Source: an uncultured Pirellulales bacterium (GTDB lineage Bacteria; Planctomycetota; Phycisphaerae; Sedimentisphaerales; Anaerobacaceae). From it: DNA of 64,000 bases. The position numbers and the translations under genes are program-made. The notes beneath the pieces were generated by a model. It ran no database searches and was not told the DNA's origin. It was given only the letters and a program-made list of their open reading frames with translations. This document shows positions 6,023 to 24,395 of the stretch, one piece after another; position 1 is the stretch's first letter; the number at the start of each line of letters is the position of its first letter. The stretch is from assembly GCA_964499145.1 (NCBI GenBank), contig CAZCIR010000012.1, positions 3,603-67,602 on the forward strand, read 5' to 3'.

Positions 6023-6910
6023 ATGACATTTTTATCAGCTAATCCCGGGCCGTTTAGTGAAGCCGTTTCGAAATTGTGGGATTGTATGAATCCATGTATG
6101 CTATGTCCGCGCAGGTGCAAAGTTGATCGCGGCAAAGGCGAAATCGGCTTTTGCGGCATCGGCGATAAGCCGATAGTCAGCTCCGTCGGGCCACACTACG
6201 GCGAAGAAAGCGTTCTTGTCGGTCAGGGGGGATCGGGAACGATATTTTTCGCCGGCTGTAATCTCGGCTGCGTCTTCTGCCAGAACTCCGATATCAGCCA
6301 TCATCGCAGCGGCCGAGAGGTTACAATCGAAGAATTAGCACAATCTATGCTCCGCCTTCAAAGTATCGGCTGCAGTAATATCAACTTCGTCACACCTACT
6401 CACGTTATACCAGCTATTGCGGCTGCTATTGAATCGGCCAAAAAGAAAGGCCTGACTTTGCCTACGGTCTACAATACCGGCGGATACGATTCAGTTGAAA
6501 CGTTAAAAATGCTCGACGGCTTTATAGATATTTATATGCCGGATATGAAGTACTCGGATTCGGCGGCAGCAGAGGAGCTATCCAGCGCAGCGGATTATCC
6601 GCAGGTGAATCGCGAGGCGGTCAAAGAGATGCACCGACAAGCAGGCGATTTACAAATAGAAAAAGGGCTGGCTACACAAGGTCTCTTAATAAGACATTTA
6701 GTTTTACCGGAGAATCTGGCAGGCAGCTTCGAGATAGTAGATTTTTTAGCAGAGCAAATCAGCCAAAAAACAGCGATTAATGTGATGGAACAGTACCATC
6801 CCTGTTATCAGGCACACTTACACCCCAAAATAAACCGCAGACCTACCCCACAGGAAATCGAATCCGTCCGCCGGTACGCAATCAAAAAGGGGCTACGGGT
6901 CATTTCATAG
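6023..6910 (+). CDS. Radical SAM protein, PflX-like (pyruvate formate-lyase-activase homologue)
   Basis: It has the CxxxCxxC cluster GCNLGCVFCQN and an N-terminal Cys-rich CPRRCKVDRGKGEIGFCG. The length and motif order match the PflX/COG1313-type family. Confidence 0.8.
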   Translation: MTFLSANPGPFSEAVSKLWDCMNPCMLCPRRCKVDRGKGEIGFCGIGDKPIVSSVGPHYGEESVLVGQGGSGTIFFAGCNLGCVFCQNSDISHHRSGREVTIEELAQSMLRLQSIGCSNINFVTPTHVIPAIAAAIESAKKKGLTLPTVYNTGGYDSVETLKMLDGFIDIYMPDMKYSDSAAAEELSSAADYPQVNREAVKEMHRQAGDLQIEKGLATQGLLIRHLVLPENLAGSFEIVDFLAEQISQKTAINVMEQYHPCYQAHLHPKINRRPTPQEIESVRRYAIKKGLRVIS

Positions 6911-7522: not shown

Positions 7523-8386
7523 TTATTCATCACCAACCTCGAACTTATAGCTTAGTAACTTGTAAATAAGCTTGGCAGCTAAGAAATCAGGGGCCTTGTT
7601 TTTTACATCAGGACATAATTCAACAACGTCAAAGCCGACAATGTTCTTACTGCCGGAAACCTCCTTCAATAAAACCAGCACGTCATACCACAACAATCCA
7701 CCCGGCTCAGGAGTCCCGGTAGAGGGCATTATAGAAGGGTCAAATACATCCAGGTCTATTGTTATATAAACATTGTCAGAGAGTTTGGAAATAACTTTTT
7801 TAATCCAGGCCGTATTGTTGTATATGTCCTTTGCAAAAAATGCCCTGGACAGATCTAAAGATTTTTTCTCAGAGTAATCCATACTTCTGATACCCACCTG
7901 TACAATCGGACAAAGCTCTTTAATCCGAGCCATAACACAAGCATGGCTATATTTTGAACCGTTGTATTCCTGCCTTAAATCAGTATGGGCGTCCAACTGC
8001 AAAACAGTAAGATTCTCGTATTGCTCCGTATGAGCTTTAATCGAGCCGATGCTGACCGAGTGCTCACCGCCTGTAATGACCGTGAACTTGTTCTTTTCAA
8101 GATAATATTTTGTAATTTGTGTAACTGCCTGAATCATTTCCGCAGTAGAAATATCTCCGCCTATTTCCTCCTCGGTAAATATACCTTTCTTGTAAACCTG
8201 CGAATCAGTCTCTATATCATAAAGCTCCATATTAGCTGAGGCTTCAATTATCGCCGCCGGCCCTTTGTCGGCACCTTTGACCCAGGTGCTCGTTCCATCG
8301 TAGGCGACAGGAATAATAACTACACCAGCATCATCCTGATTGGAATATTCTTCGGGCAGATACCCAAAATTAATTGTTTCTTTCAT
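7523..8386 (-). CDS. speB: Agmatinase (arginase/ureohydrolase family)
   Basis: Mn-binding motifs are present in canonical order: GGEHSVS, LDAHTDL, DLDVFDP and the PEPGG loop. It sits 20 nt downstream of pdaD. Confidence 0.9.
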   Translation of the reverse strand: MKETINFGYLPEEYSNQDDAGVVIIPVAYDGTSTWVKGADKGPAAIIEASANMELYDIETDSQVYKKGIFTEEEIGGDISTAEMIQAVTQITKYYLEKNKFTVITGGEHSVSIGSIKAHTEQYENLTVLQLDAHTDLRQEYNGSKYSHACVMARIKELCPIVQVGIRSMDYSEKKSLDLSRAFFAKDIYNNTAWIKKVISKLSDNVYITIDLDVFDPSIMPSTGTPEPGGLLWYDVLVLLKEVSGSKNIVGFDVVELCPDVKNKAPDFLAAKLIYKLLSYKFEVGDE

Positions 8387-8406: not shown

Positions 8407-8958
8407 TTAATCAAACAGAAACATTGCTATCGCTACCGTTGTTGTCCACAGCCCTTCCAGTCCTTTTGCGGTCTGTGTAATATTGGTAGTCTTAACAAAC
8501 AGGCCGCTGGACCTGTAGGCCTGTTCCTTTTCCGACCATGCTTTGTCCGGGTCCAACTCCAGACCAAAAGTTGTCCCCAGCATACCAGCCGCCAGGTCTT
8601 CCGCCATATCTCCGGCCTGCTGACTATTCATACCGTGGCCGTGTACCTCGCTCAGGTATCCCCACTGATCTTCATCTTTGGGCAGGGCAATTCCTATGGA
8701 AGAGGCCACTAATCGTCCGTGCTCATTAGTATCGGCTCTCGCCAGTACACAATAGGATATTTGGCCAGGAATCAGTTTTTTCAATCCATTTTCCAGGCTG
8801 ACCATTTTGCACCCTGGCGGAAGAATTGATGATACCTGAACTAAATTCTGCTGTGCTACACCAGCTCCTCTTAACGCCGCCTCGAAGGATTTCAGCTGGT
8901 ATTTATGATGTCCAACTCCTTTTGTCAGAAACATTTGCGTGGGGACAGAATTGTTCAT
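8407..8958 (-). CDS. pdaD: Pyruvoyl-dependent arginine decarboxylase
   Basis: The N-terminus VPTQMFLTKGVGHHK and the self-cleavage region NLVQVSSILPPG are typical of PdaD. AGGAG lies upstream, and the 183-aa size fits. Confidence 0.9.
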   Translation of the reverse strand: MNNSVPTQMFLTKGVGHHKYQLKSFEAALRGAGVAQQNLVQVSSILPPGCKMVSLENGLKKLIPGQISYCVLARADTNEHGRLVASSIGIALPKDEDQWGYLSEVHGHGMNSQQAGDMAEDLAAGMLGTTFGLELDPDKAWSEKEQAYRSSGLFVKTTNITQTAKGLEGLWTTTVAIAMFLFD

Positions 8959-11820: not shown

Positions 11821-11846
11821 GGATTCCTGCTTACGCAGGAATGACA
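11821..11846. repeat. REP-like palindromic element, copy 2
   Basis: The sequence ggattcctgcttacgcaggaatgaca differs from copy 1 (5429..5454) only in the loop. It lies in the intergenic region just upstream of the DUF2905 gene. Confidence 0.7.
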
Positions 11847-11876
11847 GGTTCCGGTATATAAGTGAACTGGAAAATA

Positions 11877-12107
11877 ATGGAATTCGGTCCGCAACAAATC
11901 GGTAAATGGTTAATTTTAATGGGGATTACCATCGCACTGGTCGGGGGTATGGTGATGATATTAGGCCGAACAGGCCTGTTTAAGCTACCCGGCGATTTAG
12001 AATTCGGCGGCAAAAACTGGCGGATATATCTACCCATAGCGAGCTGTATAATAATTTCAATTGTCCTGACGCTTATCCTGTGGCTTATCAATTATTTTCG
12101 CAGGTGA
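11877..12107 (+). CDS. DUF2905-family small membrane protein
   Basis: Track ORF 11862..12107; ATG is at 11877. The sequence IGKWLILMGITIALVGGMVMILGRTGLFKLPGDLEFGGKNWRIYLPIASCIIISIVLTLILWLINYF matches the characteristic DUF2905 pattern. Confidence 0.7.
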   Translation: MEFGPQQIGKWLILMGITIALVGGMVMILGRTGLFKLPGDLEFGGKNWRIYLPIASCIIISIVLTLILWLINYFRR

Positions 12108-12109
12108 TA

Positions 12110-15100
12110 TTACTCAGCCTTCTTATAAAATTCGGCTTCTTCGTCGGAAAGTTTTCCCTCCTGAATCATTTTGCGAATGCGCTGCAAATCGACGTCCCTG
12201 GGCCGGCCGATGCCGGATGTCGAAACAACAGGCCGACTAATGTCGGCGGGTGTAACATGCAGAAACCTCTCCACTGAGACCATCGATACGAAAATTCCCA
12301 CTAAAACAACCACCACCACAAGATAACGAGATAAATAAGAAACGTGAGACGGAAAACGCTGGTCTTCGGCCTGATAGCGACACCTGTCACAATATATACA
12401 ATCCAGATGGTCTTTCGGGGTGAGGCCGAACTCGCATCTGCTGAATCTTTTTGCGGGTAAAAATCGCTTCAGCACTACACAATTGTTGAGCAGTGACAAA
12501 AAAGCCCCCACCGGACACAAATATCGGCACCAAAAGCGAGTATAGAAAATCGAGCCAATTAAAGCTATCGCTATTATCGAGCCAATACTAACCGAATACA
12601 TCGTGGAACTACCTGAAAAGGCCGCTATAAGTGGGTCTGCCGCCAGCGTAGTCCGGTTTCTGGAAACGAAAAACACTATTATAAAAACAAAAAGAACCAC
12701 ATATTTGACAAATCCTGCCTTCTGCATCGATACATTCGGTATGGCGGACTTGAACCTGCGAGGAACAACATAACCGAGCAACTCCTGCGCAGCGCCAAAG
12801 GGACAAATGTAGCCGCAATAAATGTTGCCGAAGATTATAACCAGAAGCGGCACGGCTGCAATTAACAGGAATGTCCCCGACAATTTTACAGCGGGGCTGT
12901 GCAAAGATAATACGGTCATCATCTGTTCGCTTGAATACTGAGCGTTCAGAACAATACCGCCGACCACAAGATTAAAACAAAGAACCACCAGCCTGCTCCA
13001 GAATCCGCCGCGGAAAATTACAATAAAACTAAGCACGAAAGCACTTATCAGATATATGGCGGGTATATCGGGCCGATACACTTGCTGCGAAGGAAGCGGA
13101 GATGGCAGAGCCTGGTTAAGAATTTCACCGGCGAACCTGTAACCTGATTTTTCCAGTGCTGAAAGAACAGCACCGGAGCTGAAAGTAGCGCCGGTTACTG
13201 CGTTAACACCGGCGAAAGGCTCGGCCTGGAAAAGGAGACGGCCGGTGAGAAGTTCACGCCACCGGCCAAGAAGCTCAAGATATGCAGGAGTCTCGCTGGA
13301 TGATATTATATGGAAATTAATTAACTTGCCAGCAGCATCGACATAGATGGCCAGATTTATCTTTCCTCCAAAACCGCTGACCTCCGGCGCCAGGTCCTGC
13401 GAGCTAAAGATGTAGCCATTCAGTTTATCGCTGGAATCATAAACCCGAAAATAACTGATTTTTCGAGCATTTTTCTCAATAACCGCTGATGCCTCTTCAA
13501 TGCGTGCCCGGCCAGCCAGTGCCTGAGCAGCATACTTCGGCAACGACGGCCTCAACTCCACGCCGGCTTTAACAAGCAAGTTGGAGCAGAGAATAACCAT
13601 CAGGCCGATGCCAAAAAGGATGTAGCCGAGCTTGCGCCGACTAAAAGTAGTTGCAGCAAAGTGAACTTTTTCCAGCTTGTATAGTCTCAGTGCGGCAGGC
13701 GGTATATTGGCCAGAATAAACAAAGCAAATATAAATAGTGTTACCTTCGTTCCAAGAACAGGAACAAGTACAAGGCCTGTCAGTAAGCCACCTGCTGAGG
13801 CGCCAATGTGGTCAGCGGTTTCCAACTTGCTGCCGGCCTGTCCCGCTTCAAAAGCAGAGTCAGCAAGCTGGCCGGCGGCGAGCGGAAAATAACCGCCGGT
13901 ACATAGGCCGCAAAGAACAAATGCGGCTGCGAAACTGCGATGTGTCCATTGTTCACCCGGCCAAAAGATAATTGCGTCCAGGATTAGTGTATGTATAACT
14001 ATCACAGCTAACAGGTAACTCGTAACTCGTGACCCTTGACCGGAGCGACGGGCCATAAGCAACGAAATAAAAACCGCCCCGACGGTTAAGCCCACCATAA
14101 ACAAAGAAGAAATAACCCCAATGTAAAGATACAGCGAACCAAAATAAGTTTGATACAAATACATCAATACAATCACCACCCCGATGCCCACCCAGCCGGC
14201 TGAGAAAACCAAAAACGAACTATCAAAGCTGGAGGCATTGCCTTGCTGAGCTGATTTCAAAATATAAACAGCACGCAAAACTATGAAAACCAGAATAGGA
14301 ACAACAAACGTCAATGGGCCGGTCAAGACCAGGTATTTCATAAATTTTGTGCCCTGCGCTCCACCGTAAGGCGCCCCGTGGACTGATTGCTTTGCCGCAA
14401 GCAACAAACTATATAAGTGCGTCAGGGGCCTGGAATCACGATTAATAAGCAATCTATCGGGTAAATCCGCACCCGAATACATCTGTAGAGCGACAGCGGC
14501 ACGGTCCGGCAAATAAACAGAAAGCAAAGCATCCGGAGGAAAAATATCCACACTACCGTTTATGGAAGCAAATCGCTGCCGTAAAATCCCCGGGTCACCG
14601 CTGAGCTTGCCGGAGTCAGAAACAATAAACCATGTATCTTCCCCGGGCGTCAGGACAAGCTGTAAGAAAACCTTCTCAAGTGTCAGTTTCGTCGAGGCCC
14701 CGAGGTTGATCAGCTCGGTTCCCATAATGTTTTCCCCACCTGTTATACGAACTGCCAGCACACCGCCGGGCCGCAACGCCTCCTTAACCTGTTGATAAAA
14801 TTCAAGCGTGTAATACCGGTTCAAAACCGAACTGGTCGCATCGGGCAGATTAAGGATTACCAAATCATAATATTTACTCTGCTTAGCAAGCAGTGAGCGA
14901 ACATCACCTGCGAGGCGGGAAAAACGCTCATCGCTTACCTTAAACTCCGGCGGTATAAATCTGTCAATCTCCATAACATATTCGCTGTCAGAGTGTGCCC
15001 AGGTTACACGCTCAATTTGCGGCAGGTGCAGGAATTCATAGCAGAGGCCTAATCCCGAGCCAATGACCAAAACCCTCTTAGTATCAGGATTTTGACAAAG

Positions 15101-15940
15101 GCCGATGGTAGCTATCCTGCCGGTGCTGCCTTTATCAGGCAGCACCTCGCAAACACTACCCTGGCGAACAGCTACCCACTGGCCGTGATAGATTCCATAG
15201 AGATATTCCGCCTGGGCCGTTCGGAAAGAACCCTTGAAAGCTTCTTTAGGAAGCAGCTTTTGCCATTTTATAATTTGCAACTGTTCTGACAGCTTCTTGT
15301 CAACACCGGCAATCAGACAAACGCAAATACATACCGGCACAAAAGCCCATACCCAGCTCTTCAACCTGGCAAGCCGCACACAAAAGAAAGAAAAAGAAAC
15401 AATAAAAGCAAGTATGAAGAAAATCCTTGCCGAACTTACACCGACTCCCAAAAGAACCGTTGTTCCCAGTCCTCCAAGAAAACTTCCAGCCGCTTCGATA
15501 ATGTACACACGCGAAACGGCGAATTCCTGTCCATTGCGAACCCATCGACAGGCAATTGGAAATAACATCCCCGTGATGAGACTGACCGGAGCATTAACCA
15601 CTATTGACAAAAGCAGGATAACCTTTATGGACAGTAATGCGTAAGATTCAACCCCTGCAAGCTCACGCGCCTGAATAATCAAAATAATCTCCGCAATAAA
15701 AGCCGGCAGGTAACACAAAAACAGAAATTCTATATTTTTAAGCAGCTTTTCAGCAAAGGCTTTAGCTCTGTATACGAGCAGCGCCCCCAAACCAACCCAT
15801 AAAAACCACGAACCGAAGAAGACGCCGACACTTATGTCACTACCCTCAAAGGTGGTTAAAAAATCGCGAAAAAGCAAAGCTTGGGCGGCGATTGTGAACA
15901 GTCCGTAACTAAATATCAGCAGGCTGCGGGCAAATCTCAT
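12110..15940 (-). CDS. 1276-aa polytopic chimera: membrane domain + spermidine-synthase-like (class I MTase fold) domain + second membrane block + FMN_bind domain + NapH/NosR-type 4Fe-4S polyferredoxin membrane domain
   Basis: The SpeE-like motifs are RVLVIGSGLGL and YDLVILNLPDATSSVLNRYYTLEFYQQVKEALRPGGVLAV (about 14520..15100). The FMN_bind motif is GVNAVTGATFSSGAVLSALEK (about 13150..13520). Two CxxxCP motifs, CGYICPFGAAQELL and CRYLCPVGAFLSLL, plus CIYCDRCRY sit between helices (about 12300..12980). Its ATG overlaps the stop of the upstream gene (ATGA). Confidence 0.85.
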   Translation of the reverse strand: MRFARSLLIFSYGLFTIAAQALLFRDFLTTFEGSDISVGVFFGSWFLWVGLGALLVYRAKAFAEKLLKNIEFLFLCYLPAFIAEIILIIQARELAGVESYALLSIKVILLLSIVVNAPVSLITGMLFPIACRWVRNGQEFAVSRVYIIEAAGSFLGGLGTTVLLGVGVSSARIFFILAFIVSFSFFCVRLARLKSWVWAFVPVCICVCLIAGVDKKLSEQLQIIKWQKLLPKEAFKGSFRTAQAEYLYGIYHGQWVAVRQGSVCEVLPDKGSTGRIATIGLCQNPDTKRVLVIGSGLGLCYEFLHLPQIERVTWAHSDSEYVMEIDRFIPPEFKVSDERFSRLAGDVRSLLAKQSKYYDLVILNLPDATSSVLNRYYTLEFYQQVKEALRPGGVLAVRITGGENIMGTELINLGASTKLTLEKVFLQLVLTPGEDTWFIVSDSGKLSGDPGILRQRFASINGSVDIFPPDALLSVYLPDRAAVALQMYSGADLPDRLLINRDSRPLTHLYSLLLAAKQSVHGAPYGGAQGTKFMKYLVLTGPLTFVVPILVFIVLRAVYILKSAQQGNASSFDSSFLVFSAGWVGIGVVIVLMYLYQTYFGSLYLYIGVISSLFMVGLTVGAVFISLLMARRSGQGSRVTSYLLAVIVIHTLILDAIIFWPGEQWTHRSFAAAFVLCGLCTGGYFPLAAGQLADSAFEAGQAGSKLETADHIGASAGGLLTGLVLVPVLGTKVTLFIFALFILANIPPAALRLYKLEKVHFAATTFSRRKLGYILFGIGLMVILCSNLLVKAGVELRPSLPKYAAQALAGRARIEEASAVIEKNARKISYFRVYDSSDKLNGYIFSSQDLAPEVSGFGGKINLAIYVDAAGKLINFHIISSSETPAYLELLGRWRELLTGRLLFQAEPFAGVNAVTGATFSSGAVLSALEKSGYRFAGEILNQALPSPLPSQQVYRPDIPAIYLISAFVLSFIVIFRGGFWSRLVVLCFNLVVGGIVLNAQYSSEQMMTVLSLHSPAVKLSGTFLLIAAVPLLVIIFGNIYCGYICPFGAAQELLGYVVPRRFKSAIPNVSMQKAGFVKYVVLFVFIIVFFVSRNRTTLAADPLIAAFSGSSTMYSVSIGSIIAIALIGSIFYTRFWCRYLCPVGAFLSLLNNCVVLKRFLPAKRFSRCEFGLTPKDHLDCIYCDRCRYQAEDQRFPSHVSYLSRYLVVVVVLVGIFVSMVSVERFLHVTPADISRPVVSTSGIGRPRDVDLQRIRKMIQEGKLSDEEAEFYKKAE

Positions 15941-17538
15941 TTCTCGCTCTCACTAAAAACATCCGCCTGGAAAACAAGAAAGGTAGCACCATCCTTCCAG
16001 GCATCTTCAGGTAATCCTGCCTTCAAAGACAATTGTGTGAGCATCCGGTTTACATCCCAGCCCTGCTCGGGCGCAACCTGAGGCAAGAACACGGCGGAGC
16101 GACCATTTTTACTCAGTACTACGCCGTCTATGCCGATTCTGATTTCATCCGGCGAAGCAATTGGGGCAGGCGGAGTCAATGCCGATATCTCGATTGTAAT
16201 ATCATTGCATTCAGCCACTGTTACCGGCAGGAAACGCCTATCGTAGACGCCGGCATTAATGGCATTAAAAATAACTGACCTGTACAAAGGCTGCCGCGGA
16301 AAAATATCACCTATACAGCCTCTAAGCTGAAAATTTTCTTTAAGCGTTACGAACGCCGCCCGCTGACGTTTCATCGCATCGCTGACAGTGATATTCAACT
16401 CGGATGCCTCCGGAGCTCGCTGCCTCTGAAGAAAATAAACTAATGATTTACGGGCCAACGCCAAAAGCTGCTTCTTATCTTCCTCATTCAATTTGTGGAC
16501 GTTCGCCTCCGGCTTAATTTCAGAGGAGTTTCCCCACTTCCCGGAAAAGACAATCGAAAAGTAACTGACCGAGTTGGTGTAATCACCCGTCAATTCGCCG
16601 GAAGTTGCATACTTAACTAACTTAGCTTCAACGGATTTGTCAAACATAGAAAGCAATATTGCTATTGGCACAAACCCACATATTGTTGCACCGGTTTTGT
16701 TACGATATTCCAAAAAGCCCTTGAAATCTAAGGCCTTAATATGCTCATACGCTCCCATATCAAGCTGCTTTAGCTGCTCAGGAATGTTTTCTCTGAAGGG
16801 GACATAGCCGTAGTTTGGGCCAAAATGGGTAAAATCCGAGCTTGCAATAACGAGCGTGTCATCGTCAACCAAACTTTTCAAAATAGCACCGGCTTTTTCA
16901 ATAGTCTCTTCTGAGCAATCGCCGGCCACAATCAGTACAAGTTTAAAGTCCTTCTGCACATATTGCAGCAACGGCACTTCTATCTGAGTGCTGTGCTCGT
17001 TTTCGTTTACCTGCGGTATGTTCTGAAAAATTGAATGCTTTAAAAGCTTATCTATAAATTCCACATCCAGCGGTATCTGTCCGAGCGGCGTTTCATAATG
17101 CGTTGTCCTCGGCACACTCAGCACCTGCTCCATAGAGACACGGTGACTGGGGCCAATAATAACAACCCGTTTATATTTTTTGGATGTGGCTTTCAATCCA
17201 AAGGCCGCTGTCCGGCCGGAGAATTGATAGCCCGCGTGCGGAAGGATAAGGGCAATAACATTATCTACAGGTTCGACCTCGGCTTTTTTGAAAAATCCAT
17301 CGATTTGTTTGTTAAGTGCGTCAGCATCGGCAGGATACCAACTGCCGGCGAGTGAGGAACGAAGAACAGACTTGGCCAGCTTTGCAGGCTCCTTTTTTTC
17401 AGGGGCTGTTACTTCCTTAACCGGAGCCGCCTTTTTTTTGCATGTAGTTACAAAAAGTGTGCACAAGATACATACAAGCGGAATCACTAATTGCAAAGAA
17501 TACCTTTTATTGTCGGATTCACTCAAATGTTTTTTCAT
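15937..17538 (-). CDS. amrB-amrA: AmmeMemoRadiSam system proteins B (Memo-like) and A (AMMECR1) fused in one polypeptide, with an N-terminal lipoprotein-like signal/anchor
   Basis: Track ORF 15937..17547 (GTG). ATG 17538 has GGAG 9 nt upstream. Memo motifs are LPHAGYQFSG, IGPSH and SSDFTHFG. The AMMECR1 motif is AAFVTLKENFQLRGCIGDI. The N-terminus is MKKHLSESDNKRYSLQLVIPLVCILCTLFVTTC, followed by a K/P/E/A-rich tether. Confidence 0.85.
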   Translation of the reverse strand: MKKHLSESDNKRYSLQLVIPLVCILCTLFVTTCKKKAAPVKEVTAPEKKEPAKLAKSVLRSSLAGSWYPADADALNKQIDGFFKKAEVEPVDNVIALILPHAGYQFSGRTAAFGLKATSKKYKRVVIIGPSHRVSMEQVLSVPRTTHYETPLGQIPLDVEFIDKLLKHSIFQNIPQVNENEHSTQIEVPLLQYVQKDFKLVLIVAGDCSEETIEKAGAILKSLVDDDTLVIASSDFTHFGPNYGYVPFRENIPEQLKQLDMGAYEHIKALDFKGFLEYRNKTGATICGFVPIAILLSMFDKSVEAKLVKYATSGELTGDYTNSVSYFSIVFSGKWGNSSEIKPEANVHKLNEEDKKQLLALARKSLVYFLQRQRAPEASELNITVSDAMKRQRAAFVTLKENFQLRGCIGDIFPRQPLYRSVIFNAINAGVYDRRFLPVTVAECNDITIEISALTPPAPIASPDEIRIGIDGVVLSKNGRSAVFLPQVAPEQGWDVNRMLTQLSLKAGLPEDAWKDGATFLVFQADVFSESEK

Positions 17539-17539
17539 A

Positions 17540-17722
17540 TTAACCACTCCATTTGCCCTGTCTTAGAAGACCCTGTAAAGGCTTTATGAAACCGGGATAC
17601 TTCTGAAGTTTAAGTGCCCGGATGAACTTACGAGGTGAAGCTTTTTTTGCTACCCAGCAGGCGCCAACAATAATTGCTGAGCCAGCTTTTAATAATTCCT
17701 GAATGAATTTTCTTCGCGTCAT
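17540..17722 (-). CDS. 60-codon ORF with a twin-arginine (Tat) signal-like N-terminus, function unknown
   Basis: Sequence: MTRRKFIQELLKAGSAIIVGACWVAKKASPRKFIRALKLQKYPGFIKPLQGLLRQGKWSG. Its ATG overlaps the amrS stop (ATGA), and its stop lies 1 nt before the amrB-amrA ATG. The track lists it as 17540..17728 with a TTG start. Coding status is supported only by this tight packing and the Tat motif. Confidence 0.45.
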   Translation of the reverse strand: MTRRKFIQELLKAGSAIIVGACWVAKKASPRKFIRALKLQKYPGFIKPLQGLLRQGKWSG

Positions 17723-18702
17723 CTCCAAACTCCATATATTTCTTTACCGCAATCAGGACAACAGCCTTGCTTGAGACGGTTCTGCATAATGATATAACCG
17801 ATGCGTTCAATAAGTAACTTCCTGCAGCTGGGACAATATGTGTTCTGGCCGCCCTTACGCCGGACATTTCCTATATAAACGTAATTCATCCCTTCGCTTA
17901 TTGCAATTTCGCGGGCTAAATCAAGCGTCTTTTCAGACGTCGGCGGCAGATGCCGCATCTTATACCGCGGGAAAAATCGCGAAAAATGAAGCGGAGTCTC
18001 ACCGCCGAGATTCGCTTTGATCCAACGAACTAATTGGCGAATTTCTTTCGGCTTGTCGTTCAATGTCGGAATAATCAGATTCGTAACTTCTACCAGTATG
18101 CCGCTGGCCTTTGCTAAAACCATCGCTTTCTGCACCGGCTTTAAGGTCGCAGAGCAAACTTTACGGTAAAACTCATCCGTTATCCCCTTTAAATCTATGT
18201 TAGCAGCATCGACAACTTCTAACAGCTTTTTCCAAGGCTCTTCATTTATATAGCCCGCCGTAACAAGAACATTTCGTATATTCGCCTTCCTAGCTAATTT
18301 TGACGTGTCATAGGTGTATTCATAATAAATAACCGGCTCAGTATACGTATATGCAATTGAGGAGAAGTTTTGCGATTTTGCCATTTCAACAACTTTCTCA
18401 GGCGGGCAGAGATATGCAGGCGTATCTTCCGGATTAGCCTGTGATATTTCCCAGTTCTGGCAGTTGAGACAATGTAGATTACAACCGGCAGTTGCAATAG
18501 AAAGTATGCGACTTGCCGGCAGGAAATGAAAAAGTGGCTTTTTCTCAATCGGGTCATCGTGGATTGAGCAAGGGTATCCATAAACCACCGTCCGCAGGAC
18601 ACCATCGATGTTGATTCTAACACGGCACTCGCCACTTTGGCCGGGTTCAATCAGGCATCTCTTTGGACATAGCTCACACTGAACTTTCAATTTAAGCCCC
18701 AC
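17719..18702 (-). CDS. amrS: AmmeMemoRadiSam system radical SAM enzyme
   Basis: The N-terminal Cys motif is VQCELCPKRCLIEPGQSGECRVR and the radical SAM cluster is GCNLHCLNCQNWEISQ. Its size, and its adjacency to Memo and AMMECR1, define the family. A GTG start is assumed. Confidence 0.85.
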   Translation of the reverse strand: MGLKLKVQCELCPKRCLIEPGQSGECRVRINIDGVLRTVVYGYPCSIHDDPIEKKPLFHFLPASRILSIATAGCNLHCLNCQNWEISQANPEDTPAYLCPPEKVVEMAKSQNFSSIAYTYTEPVIYYEYTYDTSKLARKANIRNVLVTAGYINEEPWKKLLEVVDAANIDLKGITDEFYRKVCSATLKPVQKAMVLAKASGILVEVTNLIIPTLNDKPKEIRQLVRWIKANLGGETPLHFSRFFPRYKMRHLPPTSEKTLDLAREIAISEGMNYVYIGNVRRKGGQNTYCPSCRKLLIERIGYIIMQNRLKQGCCPDCGKEIYGVWR

Positions 18703-18807
18703 TTCATACTATTTATAGATTCTCCATAATTATAACAAATTCTTATACTCTTACCACAGGTTAGAAGTTCTCTTGAGGTTTGACAGCCTGTATCGCAATT
18801 ATATGAC

Positions 18808-18922
18808 ATAACGAAGAGGGTGGGATTGCCATTCGGGCCAGGTGTTTGTCGGCACTACGTGCATCGCCAAACCCTTCTCATCCCGGCGCATCACAAGCAG
18901 TTGTGCTGCTCCCTTCCGTTAT
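18808..18922. ncRNA. Unassigned GC-rich foldable element (candidate structured RNA); strand undetermined
   Basis: This stretch is conspicuously GC-rich in an AT-rich spacer, directly abutting tRNA-Ser. Hand folding gives four parts. The terminal stem pairs 18808..18820 with 18911..18922 (11 bp, 2 bulges). An inner long hairpin pairs GGGAU/AUCCC and GGUGUUUG/CAAACCC, with a GCAC-UAC-GUGC tip. A second hairpin is AGCAG-UUGUG-CUGCU. Every pair I drew is Watson-Crick, so the strand cannot be inferred. Confidence 0.3.
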
Positions 18923-18937
18923 TCACTTCATTCATAA

Positions 18938-19028
18938 CGGAGAGGGCGGGATTCGAACCCGCGCAGCGGGTTTATACCCACTGGACGGTTTAGCAAACCG
19001 TTGCCTTCAGCCACTCGGCCACCTCTCC
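18938..19028 (-). tRNA. tRNA-Ser, anticodon GCU, class II (long variable arm), no encoded CCA
   Basis: The minus strand reads GGAGAGGTGGCCGAGTGGCTGAAGGCAACGGTTTGCTAAACCGTCCAGTGGGTATAAACCCGCTGCGCGGGTTCGAATCCCGCCCTCTCCG. It has a 7-bp acceptor stem, an anticodon stem ACGGT/ACCGT with loop TTGCTAA, a long extra arm, and the T-loop GGTTCGAATCC. Confidence 0.95.
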
Positions 19029-19568
19029 GAATAATTCTCTGATAAGCTATATTTTTAGAGCTCTTATTGCAAGAAGATTAAGGGTAAGCTGCACTGTTCT
19101 GACTTTATGAGTAGAAACAGCTTGAGTATTAAAGGAAGGCTTTCATTGGTAATTCTGTTGCAATTATCAAATAACATTTATAGCCTCAATATACCCATTT
19201 TTTATAAGGCGCTGCCTTTTGGCATTTATTGTTTATTCGCATGGTAGCCGCTTGCATTAAGAAATTACCAGAATCCGGTTTCGTTCTGCGCAGTACTGAG
19301 AAACTTCATCTTTAACCGCATATCCTACCTCAATAATGATATATCAGCTATTAGGGAGCAGATATTATAGGTCTTTATTAAAAGATTTCAATAAAAGAAC
19401 AAATCTGCGTCTTTTTTCCTCGTTATGATTTTAAGGTGTTTTAGTCATTTGTGCAAAAAAATAGCTCCGCATTAAAAAAAAAACAGGGCAATACCAGCGA
19501 AATTGTCGATATAAGGAACTATGAAGTAATTTATTATCGGTATAAATGAATTTGAAAGGGGGTATATT

Positions 19569-20952: not shown

Positions 20953-21783
20953 TTGAGATATCCGGCAAAAATATGGAGATTCGCTCAAGACAGGAAGGTC
21001 GTTTTTGCATCCACCTTATTTTTATTTTTGGCGGGTTGCGGTCCATCTTTATCGTCCCCTGAGGACGTCACAAAGTTTGAAAAAGCAGGTCCCATCCAAG
21101 CAGTAATGGATTTTGACCGGTTGGCTAAAGGCAAGCCCGGCCCCTATCGAGTTATTCCAGGCGATGTACTGGAATTTCAAATGCATGTCAGCCTGCGTAT
21201 TATCTCCTCCGAGTTACCGGATTGGCTTCGACCGTCATACGGGTACAAAGAAATTGAGCCGTACCTGGTCCGTGTGAGTGATGCAGGAACTGTTACATTG
21301 CCGATTATCGGCGACATACAAGTTGCCGGTAAAACGCTTGCCGAGATAGAACAAGCGGTTAAAAACGCCTATTATCCCAAGTATGTTGTAAATCCTCCCA
21401 TGCTGGTCTGTCAGGTAAGGGAATACCAGGGTGAACATGAGAGGGTTTTTACTGTTGTGGGATTGGTGAACAAACCTGATGCGTATCCCTATCCACCAGA
21501 TGTTCAATATAACTTAATGGAGGCATTGGCATTTGCCGGCGGGCTCGATATGGTTGCTGATCCGCAATATGTTAAGGTCTTTCGGCAGGATGCTGACGGC
21601 AAAGTGCTCCAGACGACTTTTGGAATAGGCGACAAGGCCTTAACAAAAGCGTATGCCATTGCAATAAAACCGGGGGATGTCATATATGTGAACCACACAG
21701 TAAGTACGCGTATCAACAAATTTCTATCTGACGTATTTCATATAACAGTTGGTGCAAATGTTAGTGCTGCAGAGTTTAAATAA
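20953..21783 (+). CDS. wza: Polysaccharide export lipoprotein (Wza-like; Poly_export + SLBB)
   Basis: A TTG start has GGAGGA 7 nt upstream. The lipobox is LFLAGC. Motifs YRVIPGDVLEF and VTLPIIGDIQVAGKTLAEIEQAVKNAY are typical of the family. Confidence 0.85.
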   Translation: MRYPAKIWRFAQDRKVVFASTLFLFLAGCGPSLSSPEDVTKFEKAGPIQAVMDFDRLAKGKPGPYRVIPGDVLEFQMHVSLRIISSELPDWLRPSYGYKEIEPYLVRVSDAGTVTLPIIGDIQVAGKTLAEIEQAVKNAYYPKYVVNPPMLVCQVREYQGEHERVFTVVGLVNKPDAYPYPPDVQYNLMEALAFAGGLDMVADPQYVKVFRQDADGKVLQTTFGIGDKALTKAYAIAIKPGDVIYVNHTVSTRINKFLSDVFHITVGANVSAAEFK

Positions 21784-21803
21784 ATTCGCATTATAAGGGA
21801 AAT

Positions 21804-24395
21804 ATGAATAACGAAAGAGTTGAAAATGGAGATTCTAACTCAGCTTTTACCCATGTTGAGGGAATACAAGAAGAAGGTCTGCTGCAGATAGTCCTGCGTC
21901 ACCGGCAGGCCATTCTTCTCACCACGATATTGTTTTTGGTTGCTGCATTTGTTTACATTTTGAAAGCTACACCGATATATACAAGCACATCGAGGCTATA
22001 CGTCGAGCAAAGCGGGCCAAGAATCATTAGTGAGTTTGAGGGTATTATGACCCGCACGAATAACTATCTATACACACAGGCTGAGCTGTTAACATCCACC
22101 CCTATTATCGGCGAAGTAGCTGACAATCCCCAGATAAGGAGATTTAGAACATTCAATGAAATAGATAATCTGACCGCTTTTCTGAAGAAGAACCTCGTTA
22201 TCAACGTTGGCAAAAAAGATGACATAGTCAGTGTAGCATTCGATTCGCCATATCCCCAAGAAGCTGCCAGTGTTGTTAACGCTGTTATAGATTCTTATGT
22301 TAAGTATCATTCCATTCGCAAACAAACCACTGTTTCCAAAGTAGTGAATATTCTTCAAAAGGAAAAAGTCATACGGGACAAAGAATTATCAGACAAGTAT
22401 GAAGAAATGGTGCAATTTACCCGTGAAAATGGGGTAGTTTCATTTGACAACAAAGGCGGGAATTTGGTTTTTCAAAAGCTGATAACGTTGTCCGAGGCGT
22501 TAACCGAGGCACAGTTGATGACTATCAACACTCGATCTGATTACGAAGTGGTTAAGGCTATAGCTGATGACCCAGCTAAAGTTAAACAATTCGAGGCGGC
22601 TTTGCCAACTACAGGTATCCGGGTGTTAGTCAGTGACATAGAAACACAACTGGAATCCGAGCTTAAAGAAGCAGAAATGGAATTAGAGAATATAGGCTAC
22701 AATGTTACTGAAGACCATCCTGCGGTTAAGGCACTTAATGCGAAAATAGACTATATCAAAAACAGCCTTGCAGAGGAGATGAGAAAATATGCCGATGCCT
22801 ATATTGAAGTAATGCAACAAAGATGGCAGACATCCGAGCAAAAGCAGCAAACCCTGCTGGCAGCTTTCCAGGCTCAGCGAGAGGAGGCTCAGGATTTAGG
22901 AGTTAAAGCCGCTGAGTACACAATGCTGCAATCAGAGTTAGGACGGGCCGAAAGGATATGTGAAATTCTTGACGGTCGCATCAAGGAGCTAAATGTAACT
23001 GAGGATACCGGTGCACTCAATATCAGTATCCTGGAAGTCGCTCGTCCTGCAGAAAGCCCTTCGAAGCCGCAAAAAGCCAGGATTATGGCAATGGCTTTAG
23101 TTCTTGGTCTTATGTTCGGTGGAGGTTTAGCTTTAGTCCGTGACTGGATGGATATTCGGCTGCGGTCGGCAGATGAAATATCATCTGTTTTGGGTATACC
23201 CATTCTCGGGATGGTGCCTGCGATGGCAGAAGAACAGACCATTGTTGCGTATGGCCAGGAGCTGTGGCTTAATCTCAGGTCTATCGTAGTCCAGGCTTAT
23301 CGAGCAATATATGCGACAATAATTTCGGTGCCGCACAGTCGTAATGAAGAGCCCGAAAAGCAGAGCATTATGACACGCGCCGAGGCCTATCGAACGATGC
23401 GTGCTAAAACTCTTCACAACGACTCCGGAGATAATGCAACACCTTTTCCTGTCAGTGTTATCGAAAACGACAGACATAAGAGGACATCAAAAAAGAGGAT
23501 TAATGCGACGCATTGTCGGCAGTCATGGCTTGATTTAAAGTCTGCAATATCCCAAGGCTATCGAACAGCGTGTACCTTTCTGAGGCCAGCCAGCAGTGGT
23601 GCGAACGCTGCTGTTGACGGTTCTTCGCTTGCAAGTAAAGGCAATGCATCAACAGATAAACACGGAATCATCAGCCGCGGCCGGAGGATCCACCTCTCGC
23701 CCAAATCCCATATAGCGGAGGCATATCGAACGATACGCACAGCTGTGTTTTTCGGTGTACCCAAGAACGAAGCAAAAACTATCCTTATTACCTCACCTGA
23801 TGCCGGTGACGGTAAGACCACTCTGGTCAGCAATCTGGCAATCGCAATGGCACAAGCAGGACAAAAAACGCTTATCCTTGACGCCGATTTTAGAAAACCG
23901 ATGCAGCACAATATTTTTGAACTCGAAAACGACAAGGGGCTGTCCAGTATATTTGCAGGCACTATTAGTCTGGAGGAGGCGATTCAGTCCGGTCCCGTTG
24001 AAGAGCTTGACATTTTGAGCTGTGGGCCTGAAGTGCCGAACCCATCAGAGATACTCAACAGCGATACATTTACCGAGACTTTGAGGGATGTGCTTTCTAA
24101 ACGATACGACCGTATCATTATAGATTCGCCGCCGGTTGGGTTGGTTGCTGATGGCCAAATACTTGCAGCTCTCTGTGATATAACACTGCTGGTGCTCAGG
24201 GCGGAGAAATCCACGAGGAAGCACAGCCAGCAAGCTCGCGATGTTCTGCTCAGTGTCGGCGGTCGTTTACTCGGTGCGGTTGTAAATGATGTTCCGCGAA
24301 AGCACAGCCGTTACGGTTACTATTCCGGCTATGGATATTATAACGGTTATGGATATTATGGTGACCGAGAAAAGAAAAAAACTGCGGTTGCATAG
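21804..24395 (+). CDS. wzc: Polysaccharide co-polymerase / BY-type tyrosine autokinase (Wzc-like) with an expanded linker
   Basis: It has an N-terminal TM helix, a Wzz-like coiled-coil periplasmic domain, a second TM helix (MALVLGLMFGGGLALV), Walker A (SPDAGDGKTT), and a C-terminal Tyr cluster RYGYYSGYGYYNGYGYYG. The xAYRxxR motif occurs four times. Confidence 0.9.
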   Translation: MNNERVENGDSNSAFTHVEGIQEEGLLQIVLRHRQAILLTTILFLVAAFVYILKATPIYTSTSRLYVEQSGPRIISEFEGIMTRTNNYLYTQAELLTSTPIIGEVADNPQIRRFRTFNEIDNLTAFLKKNLVINVGKKDDIVSVAFDSPYPQEAASVVNAVIDSYVKYHSIRKQTTVSKVVNILQKEKVIRDKELSDKYEEMVQFTRENGVVSFDNKGGNLVFQKLITLSEALTEAQLMTINTRSDYEVVKAIADDPAKVKQFEAALPTTGIRVLVSDIETQLESELKEAEMELENIGYNVTEDHPAVKALNAKIDYIKNSLAEEMRKYADAYIEVMQQRWQTSEQKQQTLLAAFQAQREEAQDLGVKAAEYTMLQSELGRAERICEILDGRIKELNVTEDTGALNISILEVARPAESPSKPQKARIMAMALVLGLMFGGGLALVRDWMDIRLRSADEISSVLGIPILGMVPAMAEEQTIVAYGQELWLNLRSIVVQAYRAIYATIISVPHSRNEEPEKQSIMTRAEAYRTMRAKTLHNDSGDNATPFPVSVIENDRHKRTSKKRINATHCRQSWLDLKSAISQGYRTACTFLRPASSGANAAVDGSSLASKGNASTDKHGIISRGRRIHLSPKSHIAEAYRTIRTAVFFGVPKNEAKTILITSPDAGDGKTTLVSNLAIAMAQAGQKTLILDADFRKPMQHNIFELENDKGLSSIFAGTISLEEAIQSGPVEELDILSCGPEVPNPSEILNSDTFTETLRDVLSKRYDRIIIDSPPVGLVADGQILAALCDITLLVLRAEKSTRKHSQQARDVLLSVGGRLLGAVVNDVPRKHSRYGYYSGYGYYNGYGYYGDREKKKTAVA

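Follow-up and report, generated by a model that had tools for sequence, protein, structure and literature searches.

The AmmeMemoRadiSam system (TIGR04335 AmmeMemoSam_A, TIGR04336 AmmeMemoSam_B and TIGR04337 AmmeMemoSam_rS) was described as a cytoplasmic trio for which RNA-base modification was proposed, and a Memo/AMMECR1 fusion was noted already at that time (Balaji & Aravind 2007, PMC2034487). AmrS, Memo and AMMECR1 are still uncharacterised enzymes. The window, i.e. the whole 64,000-nucleotide stretch of DNA from an uncultured Pirellulales bacterium that was analysed, encodes the trio together with a small twin-arginine protein and a large polytopic membrane protein (hereafter the megaprotein). 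We tentatively favour the reading, and give it slightly less than an even chance, that the operon encodes an AmmeMemoRadiSam version acting at the periplasmic face of the inner membrane, with AmrS exported through Tat and the megaprotein as source of electrons and perhaps of SAM. We found no description of a periplasmic AmmeMemoRadiSam system in the searchable literature.

Operon layout and conservation

ORF calls place exactly four genes in a minus-strand operon: amrS, the small ORF, Memo::AMMECR1 and the megaprotein gene. The features of the locus, in window positions, are as follows.

18937..19029, tRNA-Ser(GCT), upstream of amrS
18703..18936, minus strand, intergenic region from amrS to tRNA-Ser(GCT), likely the operon promoter region
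17719..18702, minus strand, amrS, AmmeMemoRadiSam radical-SAM enzyme, 327 aa, GTG start
17540..17722, minus strand, small ORF, 60 aa, N-terminus MTRRKF
15937..17538, minus strand, Memo::AMMECR1 fusion, 533 aa
17431..17538, minus strand, putative N-terminal export leader of the fusion, lipobox-like ...LFVTTC, then a Pro/Glu/Lys-rich linker
16546..17355, minus strand, Memo domain, aa 62-331 (PF01875, 197 bits)
15955..16470, minus strand, AMMECR1 domain, aa 357-528 (PF01871, 161 bits)
12110..15940, minus strand, megaprotein, 1276 aa
15305..15940, minus strand, N-terminal membrane block, 7 TM helices, N-terminus predicted cytoplasmic (hydropathy, positive-inside rule, AlphaFold helices)
14333..15304, minus strand, SpeE-like domain, predicted periplasmic (PF01564 Spermine_synth, 42.5 bits at aa 275-397)
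13562..14332, minus strand, middle membrane block, 8 TM helices (hydropathy, positive-inside rule, AlphaFold helices)
13061..13561, minus strand, FMN_bind domain, RnfG-like, predicted periplasmic (PF04205, 34.5 bits at aa 856-931)
12329..13060, minus strand, NapH/NosR-like module, 5 TM helices (5 or 6) (PF12801 Fer4_5, two stretches, 54 bits)
12110..12328, minus strand, TM21 and C-terminal tail ...DLQRIRKMIQEGKLSDEEAEFYKKAE, tail predicted periplasmic, with an EAxFY motif (motif census)
11862..12107, plus strand, DUF2905 gene, convergent with the operon

The tight packing of four minus-strand genes claimed in the preliminary description is borne out by the ORF coordinates. ATGA overlaps join amrS to the small ORF (17719-17722) and Memo::AMMECR1 to the megaprotein (15937-15940), while the TAA stop of the small ORF is followed by a single base and the ATG of the fusion. 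Neither promoter-like sites (15 versus a shuffled expectation of 14.7) nor terminator-like sites (12 versus 10.1) are in excess within the four-gene block. An 86-aa minus-strand ORF (11831..12091) was considered as a downstream gene and rejected as an antisense shadow of the convergent DUF2905 gene.

All the domains proposed there also passed HMM search. AmrS, with the radical-SAM motif CNLHCLNC, scored 370 bits against TIGR04337 (cutoff 220; orthologs 381-396 bits), the Memo part 231 bits against TIGR04336 (cutoff 26) and the AMMECR1 part 162 bits against TIGR04335 (cutoff 99), and the Spermine_synth, FMN_bind and Fer4_5 matches of the megaprotein all lie above the Pfam cutoffs. The catalytic motifs of the trio are all intact, including the metal site of the Memo domain (PHAG, GPSH, SDFTH, ICG); the AMMECR1 domain carries RGCIG and DRRF motifs. 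A role of AmrS as a glycyl-radical-enzyme activase of the PflA type was rejected (56.6 bits versus the PFLA cutoff of 231.75), and no glycyl-radical enzyme gene was found within the operon.

The proposed association of the trio with a SpeE-like::FMN_bind::polyferredoxin partner recurs in other genomes. Memo::AMMECR1 adjoins a megaprotein homolog in 59 of the 61 informative species genomes and amrS does so in 53 of 54, with the same gene order and spacing recurring across species. The -4 overlaps are kept as well, in 49/51 loci between amrS and the small ORF and in 45/51 between Memo::AMMECR1 and the megaprotein. Distant relatives from other phyla keep the linkage at 25-43% identity, also where the gene order is permuted or inverted, and the module was found in Planctomycetota, Lentisphaerota, Gammaproteobacteria and Hydrogenedentota. 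Thus the arrangement of the block is beyond chance, given the recurrence of the same order and spacing across genomes and the coding pattern of the small ORF described below, and the four translationally coupled genes form a conserved module in at least four phyla. Two paralogous megaproteins (L041 and L043) stand alone, without the AmrS/Memo/AMMECR1 trio.

Putative export signals and the missing segment of AmrS

A hydrophobic leader is present on 57 of the 61 complete Memo::AMMECR1 orthologs. Sec- or lipoprotein-type leaders are conserved in three phyla, those of Victivallales and Gammaproteobacteria resembling classic cleavable Sec signals, and Memo::AMMECR1 is predicted to be exported via its Sec or lipoprotein leader. 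The small ORF starts with the twin-arginine sequence MTRRKF, continues with hydrophobic residues and ends in a short, basic tail (YPG...KWSG-stop); it has the Tat-type N-terminal motif and hydrophobic region but scores 12.2 bits against TIGR01409 TAT_signal_seq, under the cutoff of 16.7. RRx[FLIVM] and a C-terminal [WL]xG were found in 57/57 of its orthologs, the twin-arginine motif extends to distant phyla, and the ORF always lies immediately after amrS. Its relatives (123 clusters, 58-76 aa) were called by independent pipelines and one ortholog was named a Tat-signal protein by NCBI. Single-nucleotide codon differences among 45 orthologs have a synonymous/nonsynonymous ratio of 1.99 in frame versus 0.25 and 0.13 in the other frames, a coding-type pattern. 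On these sequence comparisons we take the 60-aa ORF for a genuine gene whose twin-arginine start is invariant.

The window AmrS carries no signal peptide, and its alignment with TIGR04337 starts at model position 11. It thus lacks the first approximately 10 positions of the curated model, i.e. the EAxYY segment of a full-length AmrS, and the same segment is missing in 62/62 of the loci outside the L086 lineage with a motif-detected AmrS. In these loci the motif census located an EAxYY-type motif on the megaprotein tail or on an ORF of about 90 aa. The EAxFY motif of the tail is the one that canonical AmrS carries at its own N-terminus; even the short megaproteins of Victivallales retain the tail, and in Gammaproteobacteria it forms the separate gene of about 90 aa just upstream of amrS. 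Only in one divergent lineage (L086, a cluster of 4 sequences) does AmrS align from model position 1, and there the complete TIGR04337 match is preceded by a 40-aa RRTFL leader. The ATG start of this Tat-AmrS fusion follows a Shine-Dalgarno sequence and was called identically by three independent pipelines; the L086 locus has neither the small ORF nor the tail motif. These features suggest that AmrS itself is probably exported, which the preliminary description did not propose.

An alternative would split the system across the membrane: like the anaerobic sulfatase-maturing enzymes and QhpD/QhpC, a cytoplasmic AmrS would act ahead of export and mature the Memo::AMMECR1 pre-protein or modify the small twin-arginine peptide, later exported in modified form through Tat, so that only Memo::AMMECR1, the SpeE-like domain and FMN_bind would lie outside and the NapH/FMN wire would feed the Memo metal site. 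Such an AmrS would need no signal peptide, as found in the window, but the Tat leader on the complete L086 AmrS predicts export of the enzyme, and the EAxYY motif now sits on a tail whose predicted location is the periplasm. The amrS gene and the small ORF are the tightest pair of the operon, keeping their 4-nt overlap also where the gene order changes, a typical arrangement for a radical-SAM enzyme encoded with its peptide substrate; however, between phyla the mature small protein shows little conservation (KWSG versus DLAG versus GSDE), which is unusual for a modified core peptide. In addition, the biochemistry would be simpler, because SAM, reductants and flavodoxin are in the cytoplasm, and Victivallales do without the FMN/NapH module. 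Overall we regard this division of labour as unlikely, albeit a serious contender.

Predicted topology and domains of the megaprotein

The topology was predicted from two independent alignments, one of close and one of distant homologs, by a home-made analysis that combined alignment-averaged hydropathy with the positive-inside rule. Both gave the layout of 7 TM helices, SpeE-like domain, 8 TM helices and FMN_bind with K+R counts alternating between loops, and the helix count, with seven helices in the N-terminal block, agrees with the AlphaFold secondary structure; the AlphaFold model itself is weak (pLDDT 62, pTM 0.39, low confidence in the middle block) and offers no usable geometry. The SpeE-like domain, FMN_bind and the C-terminal tail are predicted to be periplasmic and the NapH-type CX3CP/Fe-S motifs cytoplasmic. 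The envelope-located, electron-fed system envisaged in the preliminary description gains support from this alternating topology and from the conserved flavinylation motif described below, and its location in the envelope also from the Memo::AMMECR1 leaders conserved in three phyla and from the one lineage in which AmrS itself begins with a Tat leader.

Were the predicted topology wrong by one helix both before and after the SpeE-like domain, everything except FMN_bind could face the cytoplasm, with the small protein and the hydrophobic start of Memo::AMMECR1 serving as membrane anchors that tether a cytoplasmic AmmeMemoRadiSam complex and the SpeE-like domain binding cytoplasmic SAM. The conserved adenosyl-binding residues of this domain make most sense where SAM exists, Lys-rich stretches follow some of the Memo leaders, and confidence in the middle block of the AlphaFold model is low. 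Nevertheless, we consider it improbable in view of the 7+8 helices with strictly alternating charge in both alignments, the Sec-like, cleavable Memo leaders of Victivallales and Gammaproteobacteria, the twin-arginine motif invariant in the small ORF and the Tat leader of the L086 AmrS.

The FMN_bind domain, present in 36/36 distant megaprotein representatives, contains the flavinylation-type motif AVTGATFSS (Thr919 codon at 13184..13186), and a comparison of 53 homologs showed no variation at G917, A918 or T919. The module that follows carries a Cys cluster and two CX3CP motifs (12800..12817 and 12512..12529) on loops predicted to be cytoplasmic. Its matches to the NosR and NapH models are partial (54.3 bits versus a cutoff of 1000 and 38.9 versus 213, respectively) and place it outside these families proper. 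The megaproteins of Victivallales have no FMN/NapH module and no replacement was seen nearby, while in L086 a separate, non-orthologous NapH+NapG-like polyferredoxin beside the cluster takes the place of the electron module. The FMN_bind/NapH half is an addition that varies with lineage.

The spermidine-synthase fold proposed for the remaining domain stands, as shown by the PF01564 match, Foldseek TM-scores of 0.65-0.70 over about 273 columns against solved SpeE structures and a phmmer alignment with 1UIR in the PDB (E-value 1.7e-12). The adenosyl-binding residues are kept as well (G-loop, D318, D/E346, R348). The proposal has to be refined with regard to function: GSGLG replaces GGG(D/E)G (Leu in 53/60 sequences) and N-L-P-D/E replaces DxxD with loss of the catalytic Asp (Asn in 53/60), a replacement that is family-wide and includes L086. 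Curated SpeE models gave 36.5 bits (TIGR00417, cutoff 249.55) and 60.5 bits (PRK03612, cutoff 472). Since the aminopropyltransferase catalytic signature is lost, the SpeE-like domain is not a spermidine synthase. Hence a genuine membrane-bound polyamine aminopropyltransferase, in an operon that makes or attaches polyamine, is very improbable; the full SpeE fold and the genes for pyruvoyl arginine decarboxylase and agmatinase 3-4 kb from the operon in the window would suit it, but the signature and the scores do not, the domain is predicted periplasmic and the neighbourhood comparison did not find the two genes conserved as operon neighbours.

Proposed mechanism and relation to known systems

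In the periplasmic system that we favour, AmrS would fold and receive its Fe-S clusters in the cytoplasm and then be exported through Tat, here carried along by the co-translated 60-aa twin-arginine protein and in L086 with its own fused leader. Fe-S proteins require Tat for export; Memo::AMMECR1 can use Sec. Exported AmrS would dock on the EAxFY tail of the megaprotein, a substitute for its missing N-terminal segment. Electrons from a quinol or a cytoplasmic donor would reach covalent periplasmic FMN by way of the NapH-like Fe-S centres, and the FMN domain would serve as a flavodoxin surrogate reducing the AmrS cluster and/or the Memo metal site. The SpeE-like domain and the 15-helix membrane domain would perhaps bind or deliver SAM or handle the adenosyl by-product, and AmrS, Memo and AMMECR1 would modify an extracytoplasmic substrate, e.g. 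an envelope lipid, polymer or peptide. We know of no SAM pool in the periplasm and of no established exported radical-SAM enzyme. A bolder formulation, which we hold to be possible rather than probable, is that this would be the first radical-SAM system working outside the cytoplasm, in which folded AmrS is exported through Tat with a 60-aa escort and kept active by a "life-support" megaprotein that provides low-potential electrons via FMN, with SAM supplied or held by the degenerate SpeE and transporter-like domain. If true, the Memo/AMMECR1 families include one or more branches whose substrate is in the envelope instead of being RNA, and the periplasmic site would be unprecedented for a radical-SAM enzyme.

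The locus resembles AmmeMemoRadiSam in that three family models score above cutoff, the genes are co-located, Memo is fused to AMMECR1 and the catalytic motifs are intact. It differs in the export leader of Memo::AMMECR1, in AmrS, which is devoid of its N-terminal segment and has a Tat signal as partner or, in L086, as a fused leader, and in two additional conserved parts, the small twin-arginine protein and the SpeE-like polytopic membrane protein. Cofactor-containing enzymes such as hydrogenase HybOC and DmsAB are exported through Tat as "hitchhikers". Similarly, the gene of a signal-less Fe-S protein here adjoins, and is translationally coupled with, that of a twin-arginine partner; in contrast, the partner with the signal is as short as 60 aa and a radical-SAM enzyme would be its passenger, and we know of no precedent for a Tat escort of this size or for such a passenger. 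Cytoplasmic radical-SAM maturases of exported proteins include the anaerobic sulfatase-maturing enzymes and QhpD acting on QhpC. As in these systems, the radical-SAM gene adjoins a gene for a small exported polypeptide or an exported enzyme; however, those maturases are of the SPASM type whereas AmrS is PflA-like, and to our knowledge none of them carries a Tat tag of its own.

Extracytosolic electron conduits of the FMN_bind-NapH-like type are an established protein class, with NosR and PceC as characterised examples (Meheust et al. 2021, PMC8238504). The main text of that study makes no mention of Memo, AMMECR1, radical SAM or spermidine synthase, and the available part of its supplementary files contains no Memo, AMMECR1, Spermine_synth or their Pfam accessions. 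Features shared by the megaprotein and this class are a predicted extracytosolic FMN_bind domain that bears a flavinylation motif and precedes the polytopic Fe-S part (PF12801), two CX3CP motifs and predicted transmembrane electron transfer. Unlike in those systems, the module here follows a 15-helix membrane domain and a SpeE-like domain in one polypeptide, its partner is Memo/AMMECR1/radical SAM and not a respiratory reductase or oxidase, and no ApbE flavin transferase was found among the annotated ORFs at about 1.7-24.4 kb of the window (within about 8 kb). With membrane-bound SpeE-like proteins (NCBIfam PRK03612 type; NF037959 fused MFS/spermidine synthase) the megaprotein shares an N-terminal polytopic domain followed by a spermidine-synthase fold. 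Nevertheless, it scores far under both cutoffs (for NF037959, 15.5 versus 40), is devoid of the catalytic signature, has a second membrane block and a redox module, and its genes are linked to amrS/Memo/AMMECR1. The TM13/14 hairpin of the middle block is similar to the TM5/6 hairpin of the first block, and an MFS_1 match is recorded for some of the megaprotein homologs.

Organization and conservation of the operon

The four minus-strand ORFs of the operon lie where the preliminary description had placed them, and the junctions claimed there, two ATGA overlaps and a 1-nt gap, were read directly from the DNA. HMM searches likewise upheld every domain assigned to the products.

Features of the operon and its borders
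17719..18702, minus strand: ORF, amrS
17540..17722, minus strand: ORF of 60 codons, the small ORF
15937..17538, minus strand: ORF, Memo::AMMECR1 fusion
12110..15940, minus strand: ORF, megaprotein of 1276 aa
18937..19029: tRNA-Ser(GCT), upstream border of the operon
11862..12107, plus strand: convergent DUF2905 gene, downstream border of the operon

In these searches AmrS scored 370 bits against TIGR04337 (cutoff 220) and the fusion 231 bits against TIGR04336 and 162 bits against TIGR04335, while the megaprotein contained Spermine_synth (aa 275-397), FMN_bind (aa 856-931) and two stretches of Fer4_5, with partial matches to the NapH, NosR and RnfG models. Promoter-like and terminator-like matches within the block were in no excess over shuffled sequence, counts that are compatible with a single transcript and are not proof of it. 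The DUF2905 gene encodes a small membrane protein and its stop is 3 nt from that of the megaprotein. An 86-aa ORF on the minus strand (11831..12091) was considered as a fifth operon gene and rejected as the antisense shadow of the DUF2905 gene; its seeming conservation in tblastn was antisense conservation. A duplicated tRNA 3' end suspected upstream of amrS was not confirmed by a repeat finder.

The feature is real, strongly conserved and present in several phyla. Public contigs contain the exact megaprotein; full-length clusters with 64-79% identity number over 120 and carry the names Sedimentisphaerales, Phycisphaerae or Planctomycetota. The neighbourhood census that the preliminary description had suggested was performed by tblastn on the 70 loci found in a scan with one genome per species, and the megaprotein partner does recur: of the 61 loci with enough upstream sequence, 59 have Memo+AMMECR1 immediately upstream and on the same strand, and amrS is so placed in 53 of 54 informative loci. 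Two divergent paralogs, L041 and L043, depart from this pattern; in a further locus, L056, the genes are retained around a 2.7-kb insertion. Conservation is limited to the four operon genes, the flanking genes differing among loci. The -4 overlap between amrS and the small ORF is retained in 49/51 loci and that between Memo::AMMECR1 and the megaprotein in 45/51. Both paralogs are full-length (L041 2669..6631, L043 9989..14002; 36-41% identity) and have no amrS, Memo or AMMECR1 inside the available flanks; the megaprotein family may therefore function independently of the trio too, or together with a trio encoded at another place in the genome. Many of the homologous loci are recorded as “uncultured Pirellulales bacterium”. 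With 60-77% identity of their megaproteins to Sedimentisphaerales/Phycisphaerae proteins and the same operon, they probably bear a wrong order-level label. An apparent 1405-aa fusion of Memo::AMMECR1 to the membrane protein in locus L058 was rejected as an out-of-frame upstream extension in high-GC DNA, the Memo matches sitting in a different frame from the 1405-aa ORF.

The small ORF is a genuine gene. Among 45 ungapped orthologs third-position changes are in excess, and the synonymous/nonsynonymous ratio is 1.99 in frame vs 0.25 and 0.13 out of frame. The gene is also called by independent pipelines, with 123 clusters (58-76 aa) of which one is named twin-arginine signal protein. In 57 of 57 orthologs RRx[FLIVM] occurs close to the N-terminus, a hydrophobic stretch is present, and the protein ends in [WL]xG-stop; at distant loci the RR motif is kept and a (W/L)(S/A)G end is usual. 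The protein in the window reached 12.2 bits against TAT_signal_seq, just under the cutoff of 16.7, and gave no match at E <= 10 to known small Tat-target families of the TIGR02811 type.

Searching megaprotein residues 1-800 against 1.84 billion representative proteins returned 1,566 representative clusters at E <= 1e-30. Among the top 150 the usual length is 1,170-1,360 aa, even near ~30% identity, and FMN_bind and Fer4_5 are both present in 36/36 distant representatives examined. A metagenome scan was keyed on generic NapH motifs, so that true family members make up only ~13 of its 80 loci. At metagenome loci with distant relatives (25-43% identity to the megaprotein of the window) Memo+AMMECR1 adjoin in every case and amrS in most. 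The order is permuted in locus L079 (megaprotein, amrS, small ORF, fusion), and in the divergent locus L086 the genes are split on opposite strands. The named relatives of L079 are Gammaproteobacteria (Thiohalocapsa, Thiodictyon and a Lamellibrachia endosymbiont), on whose contigs the order is megaprotein, ~90-aa ORF, Radical_SAM, 58-62-aa ORF and Memo+AMMECR1; another locus, L073, belongs to Candidatus Hydrogenedentota. Linkage kept through rearrangement in four phyla argues for functional coupling instead of inherited synteny. Through the module a large unannotated family of 1,566 clusters, labelled “spermidine synthase” or “4Fe-4S binding protein”, gains context relevant to function.

In Victivallales (Lentisphaerota) the partner protein has ~860-900 aa and consists of a membrane block, the SpeE-like domain, a second membrane block and a short C-terminal tail. 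The FMN_bind/NapH module is absent from it, hence it is the SpeE-like membrane protein that forms the conserved core partner, with the redox half as an add-on. In one Victivallis genome the small ORF and Memo::AMMECR1 are separated by an inserted Phd/YefM-PIN toxin-antitoxin pair (L050 7445..8166); the operon is otherwise intact.

Predicted topology and export leaders

Megaprotein topology was predicted from alignment-averaged hydropathy and the positive-inside rule. The predicted layout starts with a cytoplasmic N-terminus and runs through seven TM helices, the SpeE-like domain, eight TM helices and FMN_bind to five TM helices, one further TM helix and the tail, with CX3CP motifs and a Cys cluster on inner loops of the five-helix stretch. 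K+R counts alternate in close homologs (~2-4 on inner loops vs ~0-1 on outer loops), an alternation independently reproduced in a set of 23-42%-identical megaproteins. AlphaFold secondary structure likewise gives 7+8 helices; the model is poor (pLDDT 62, pTM 0.39), so that its helix count alone is usable and it is too weak to place the SpeE-like domain and FMN_bind on membrane faces. The TGAT flavinylation motif in FMN_bind is invariant, and proteins of FMN_bind-NapH-like architecture are already established as conduits for extracytosolic electron transfer (PMC8238504). Because the number of helices between the SpeE-like domain and FMN_bind is even, the SpeE-like domain is predicted to share the periplasmic face with FMN_bind. 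In structure, the C-terminal half of the megaprotein belongs with flavinylated NapH-like systems, and it would work like them; it differs in that the NosR and NapH equivalog cutoffs are not reached. No ApbE gene was found among the annotated ORFs near the operon (~1.7-24.4 kb of the window).

Similar hairpins occur at TM5/6 (aa 147-190, ~15371..15502; AAGSFLGGLGTTVLLGVGV-SSAR-IFFILAF) and TM13/14 (aa 712-752, ~13685..13807; GASAGGLLTGLVLVPVLG-TKVT-LFIFALF), a likeness in sequence that hints at internal duplication of the membrane domain. Some megaprotein homologs also match MFS_1.

In 57/61 loci the N-terminus of the Memo::AMMECR1 fusion is a hydrophobic leader, followed by a Pro/Glu/Lys-rich linker. 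Many of the leaders are lipobox-like, and those of Victivallales and Gammaproteobacteria resemble classic cleavable Sec signals. The Memo metal-site residues and the AMMECR1 RGCIG and DxRF motifs are unbroken.

The AmrS N-terminus and a periplasmic reading

The trio agrees with AmmeMemoRadiSam in its defining features except that the AmrS N-terminal segment is missing. AmrS of the window and of the Gammaproteobacteria aligns only from model position 11-12, and outside L086 none of 62 AmrS proteins detected by motif carries its own EAxYY segment. An EAxFY motif is instead found on the megaprotein C-terminal tail (KLSDEEAEFYKKAE in the window) at 38 loci at least. In Gammaproteobacteria it is on a separate ~90-aa TM-plus-tail ORF whose stop overlaps the amrS start, and also on the small RR-protein (LHEADFYRPHDLAG).

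Separate TM21-plus-EAxFY tail gene in Gammaproteobacteria, ~90 aa
L151 11710..11976
L152 12138..12419

The separate gene represents a fission or fusion event that ties the tail to AmrS. In L086 the small ORF is absent and the EAxFY tail is missing from the membrane partner; the AmrS ORF starts MTLNRRTFLRMAATAPAFSLAGPAVSLVDA-AGKEDRFVREARYYKKL...CDLCPREC. Curated model position 1 aligns at residue 41 (384 bits), thus a 40-residue Tat-type leader precedes a complete AmrS. Its ATG is preceded by a GAGGGG Shine-Dalgarno with an in-frame stop just 5', and the identical 376-aa product is called by NCBI, JGI and Logan. A separate NapH+NapG-like polyferredoxin next door replaces the FMN/NapH fusion. 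This polyferredoxin, a NapH-like/NapG-like fusion of 553 aa, has an RRKLL-hydrophobic segment in its interior and is neighboured by a 334-aa Npun_F2552/DUF362-like protein with a Tat-type leader (L086 7160..9871, minus strand, for both); the two could form an alternative periplasmic electron module.

The most economical reading would be that the whole AmmeMemoRadiSam set works at the periplasmic face. On the observed basis of conservation, motifs and predicted topology, we infer the mechanistic steps as follows. The Fe-S protein AmrS would leave the cytoplasm in folded form via Tat, by its own leader in L086 and elsewhere as passenger of the co-translated RR-protein, and would dock on the periplasmic EAxFY tail. 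Memo::AMMECR1 would be exported via Sec, since cytoplasmic cofactor assembly is not required. Electrons would pass outward through the NapH-like Fe-S centres and covalent FMN and reach the cluster of AmrS, the Memo metal or both. SAM may be provided or retained by the degenerate SpeE-like domain together with the 15-helix membrane domain; or a single SAM may leave the cytoplasm with AmrS, which would use it catalytically. The main rival keeps AmrS in the cytoplasm, where the enzyme would mature either the small peptide or the fusion protein ahead of export. The biochemistry of this rival is simpler, but it leaves both the Tat-AmrS fusion and the relocated N-terminal motif unexplained. The small ORF as a RiPP-like core peptide is kept only within this rival, its C-terminal motif varying between phyla (KWSG, DLAG, GSDE).

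Conservation of MEMO1 and AMMECR1 extends from archaea to humans, in whom both have links to disease. Burroughs et al. 2019 reportedly raised nucleotide-base or isoprenoid/lipid modification for the trio and are said to have catalogued Memo gene contexts. An earlier proposal was cytoplasmic RNA-base modification (PMC2034487). A periplasm-reachable substrate argues against RNA modification, at least in this branch. It would better fit the lipid or isoprenoid idea that Burroughs et al. 2019 reportedly raised. The module brings in three conserved partners that are new, as well as a predicted cellular location; both constrain functional hypotheses, and the mechanistic hypothesis is specific, testable and surprising. 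If AmrS is truly periplasmic, radical-SAM chemistry can no longer be assumed to be confined to the cytoplasm, and the module would reveal how the cell supplies this chemistry with electrons, perhaps also SAM, across the membrane. In the searchable literature neither exported Memo/AMMECR1 or Tat-linked AmrS nor a link of a SpeE-like/NapH-like membrane protein to the trio is described, part of which Burroughs et al. 2019 may mention. The same literature names “AmmeMemoRadiSam” only in passing, in 6 papers, has no match for a membrane-bound spermidine synthase and holds no functional work on prokaryotic AMMECR1 since 2022; Memo, AMMECR1 and Spermine_synth are not mentioned in the accessible part of the flavinylation census supplements.

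The SpeE-like domain and other genes of the window

The SpeE-like domain has a complete spermidine-synthase fold and retains the G-loop, D318, D/E346 and R348. Family-wide it has GSGLG for GGG(D/E)G and Asn for the catalytic Asp (GGGFGG and N-L-P-A in L086), and it falls under the cutoff of every curated SpeE model. With catalytic motifs lost and curated cutoffs failed, it is therefore not filed as an aminopropyltransferase, and a canonical spermidine synthase was rejected; judging from the retained residues, an adenosyl ligand may still be bound. A putrescine route lies 3-4 kb from the megaprotein, formed by a pyruvoyl-dependent arginine decarboxylase gene (8407..8958, minus strand) beside an agmatinase/arginase-family gene (7523..8386, minus strand). 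A link to these genes was rejected; their nearness is probably coincidental because it is not conserved in related loci.

After a SixA phosphohistidine phosphatase gene (5552..6013, plus strand) comes a second radical-SAM gene, distantly PflA/AmrS-like (6023..6910, plus strand; only 37 bits against TIGR04337), and the pair recurs in ~8-12 related loci. Furthermore, genes for Wza-like polysaccharide export and Wzc-like chain-length/tyrosine-kinase proteins (20953..24395, plus strand) look like the start of a long plus-strand envelope-polysaccharide cluster running to ~62 kb.
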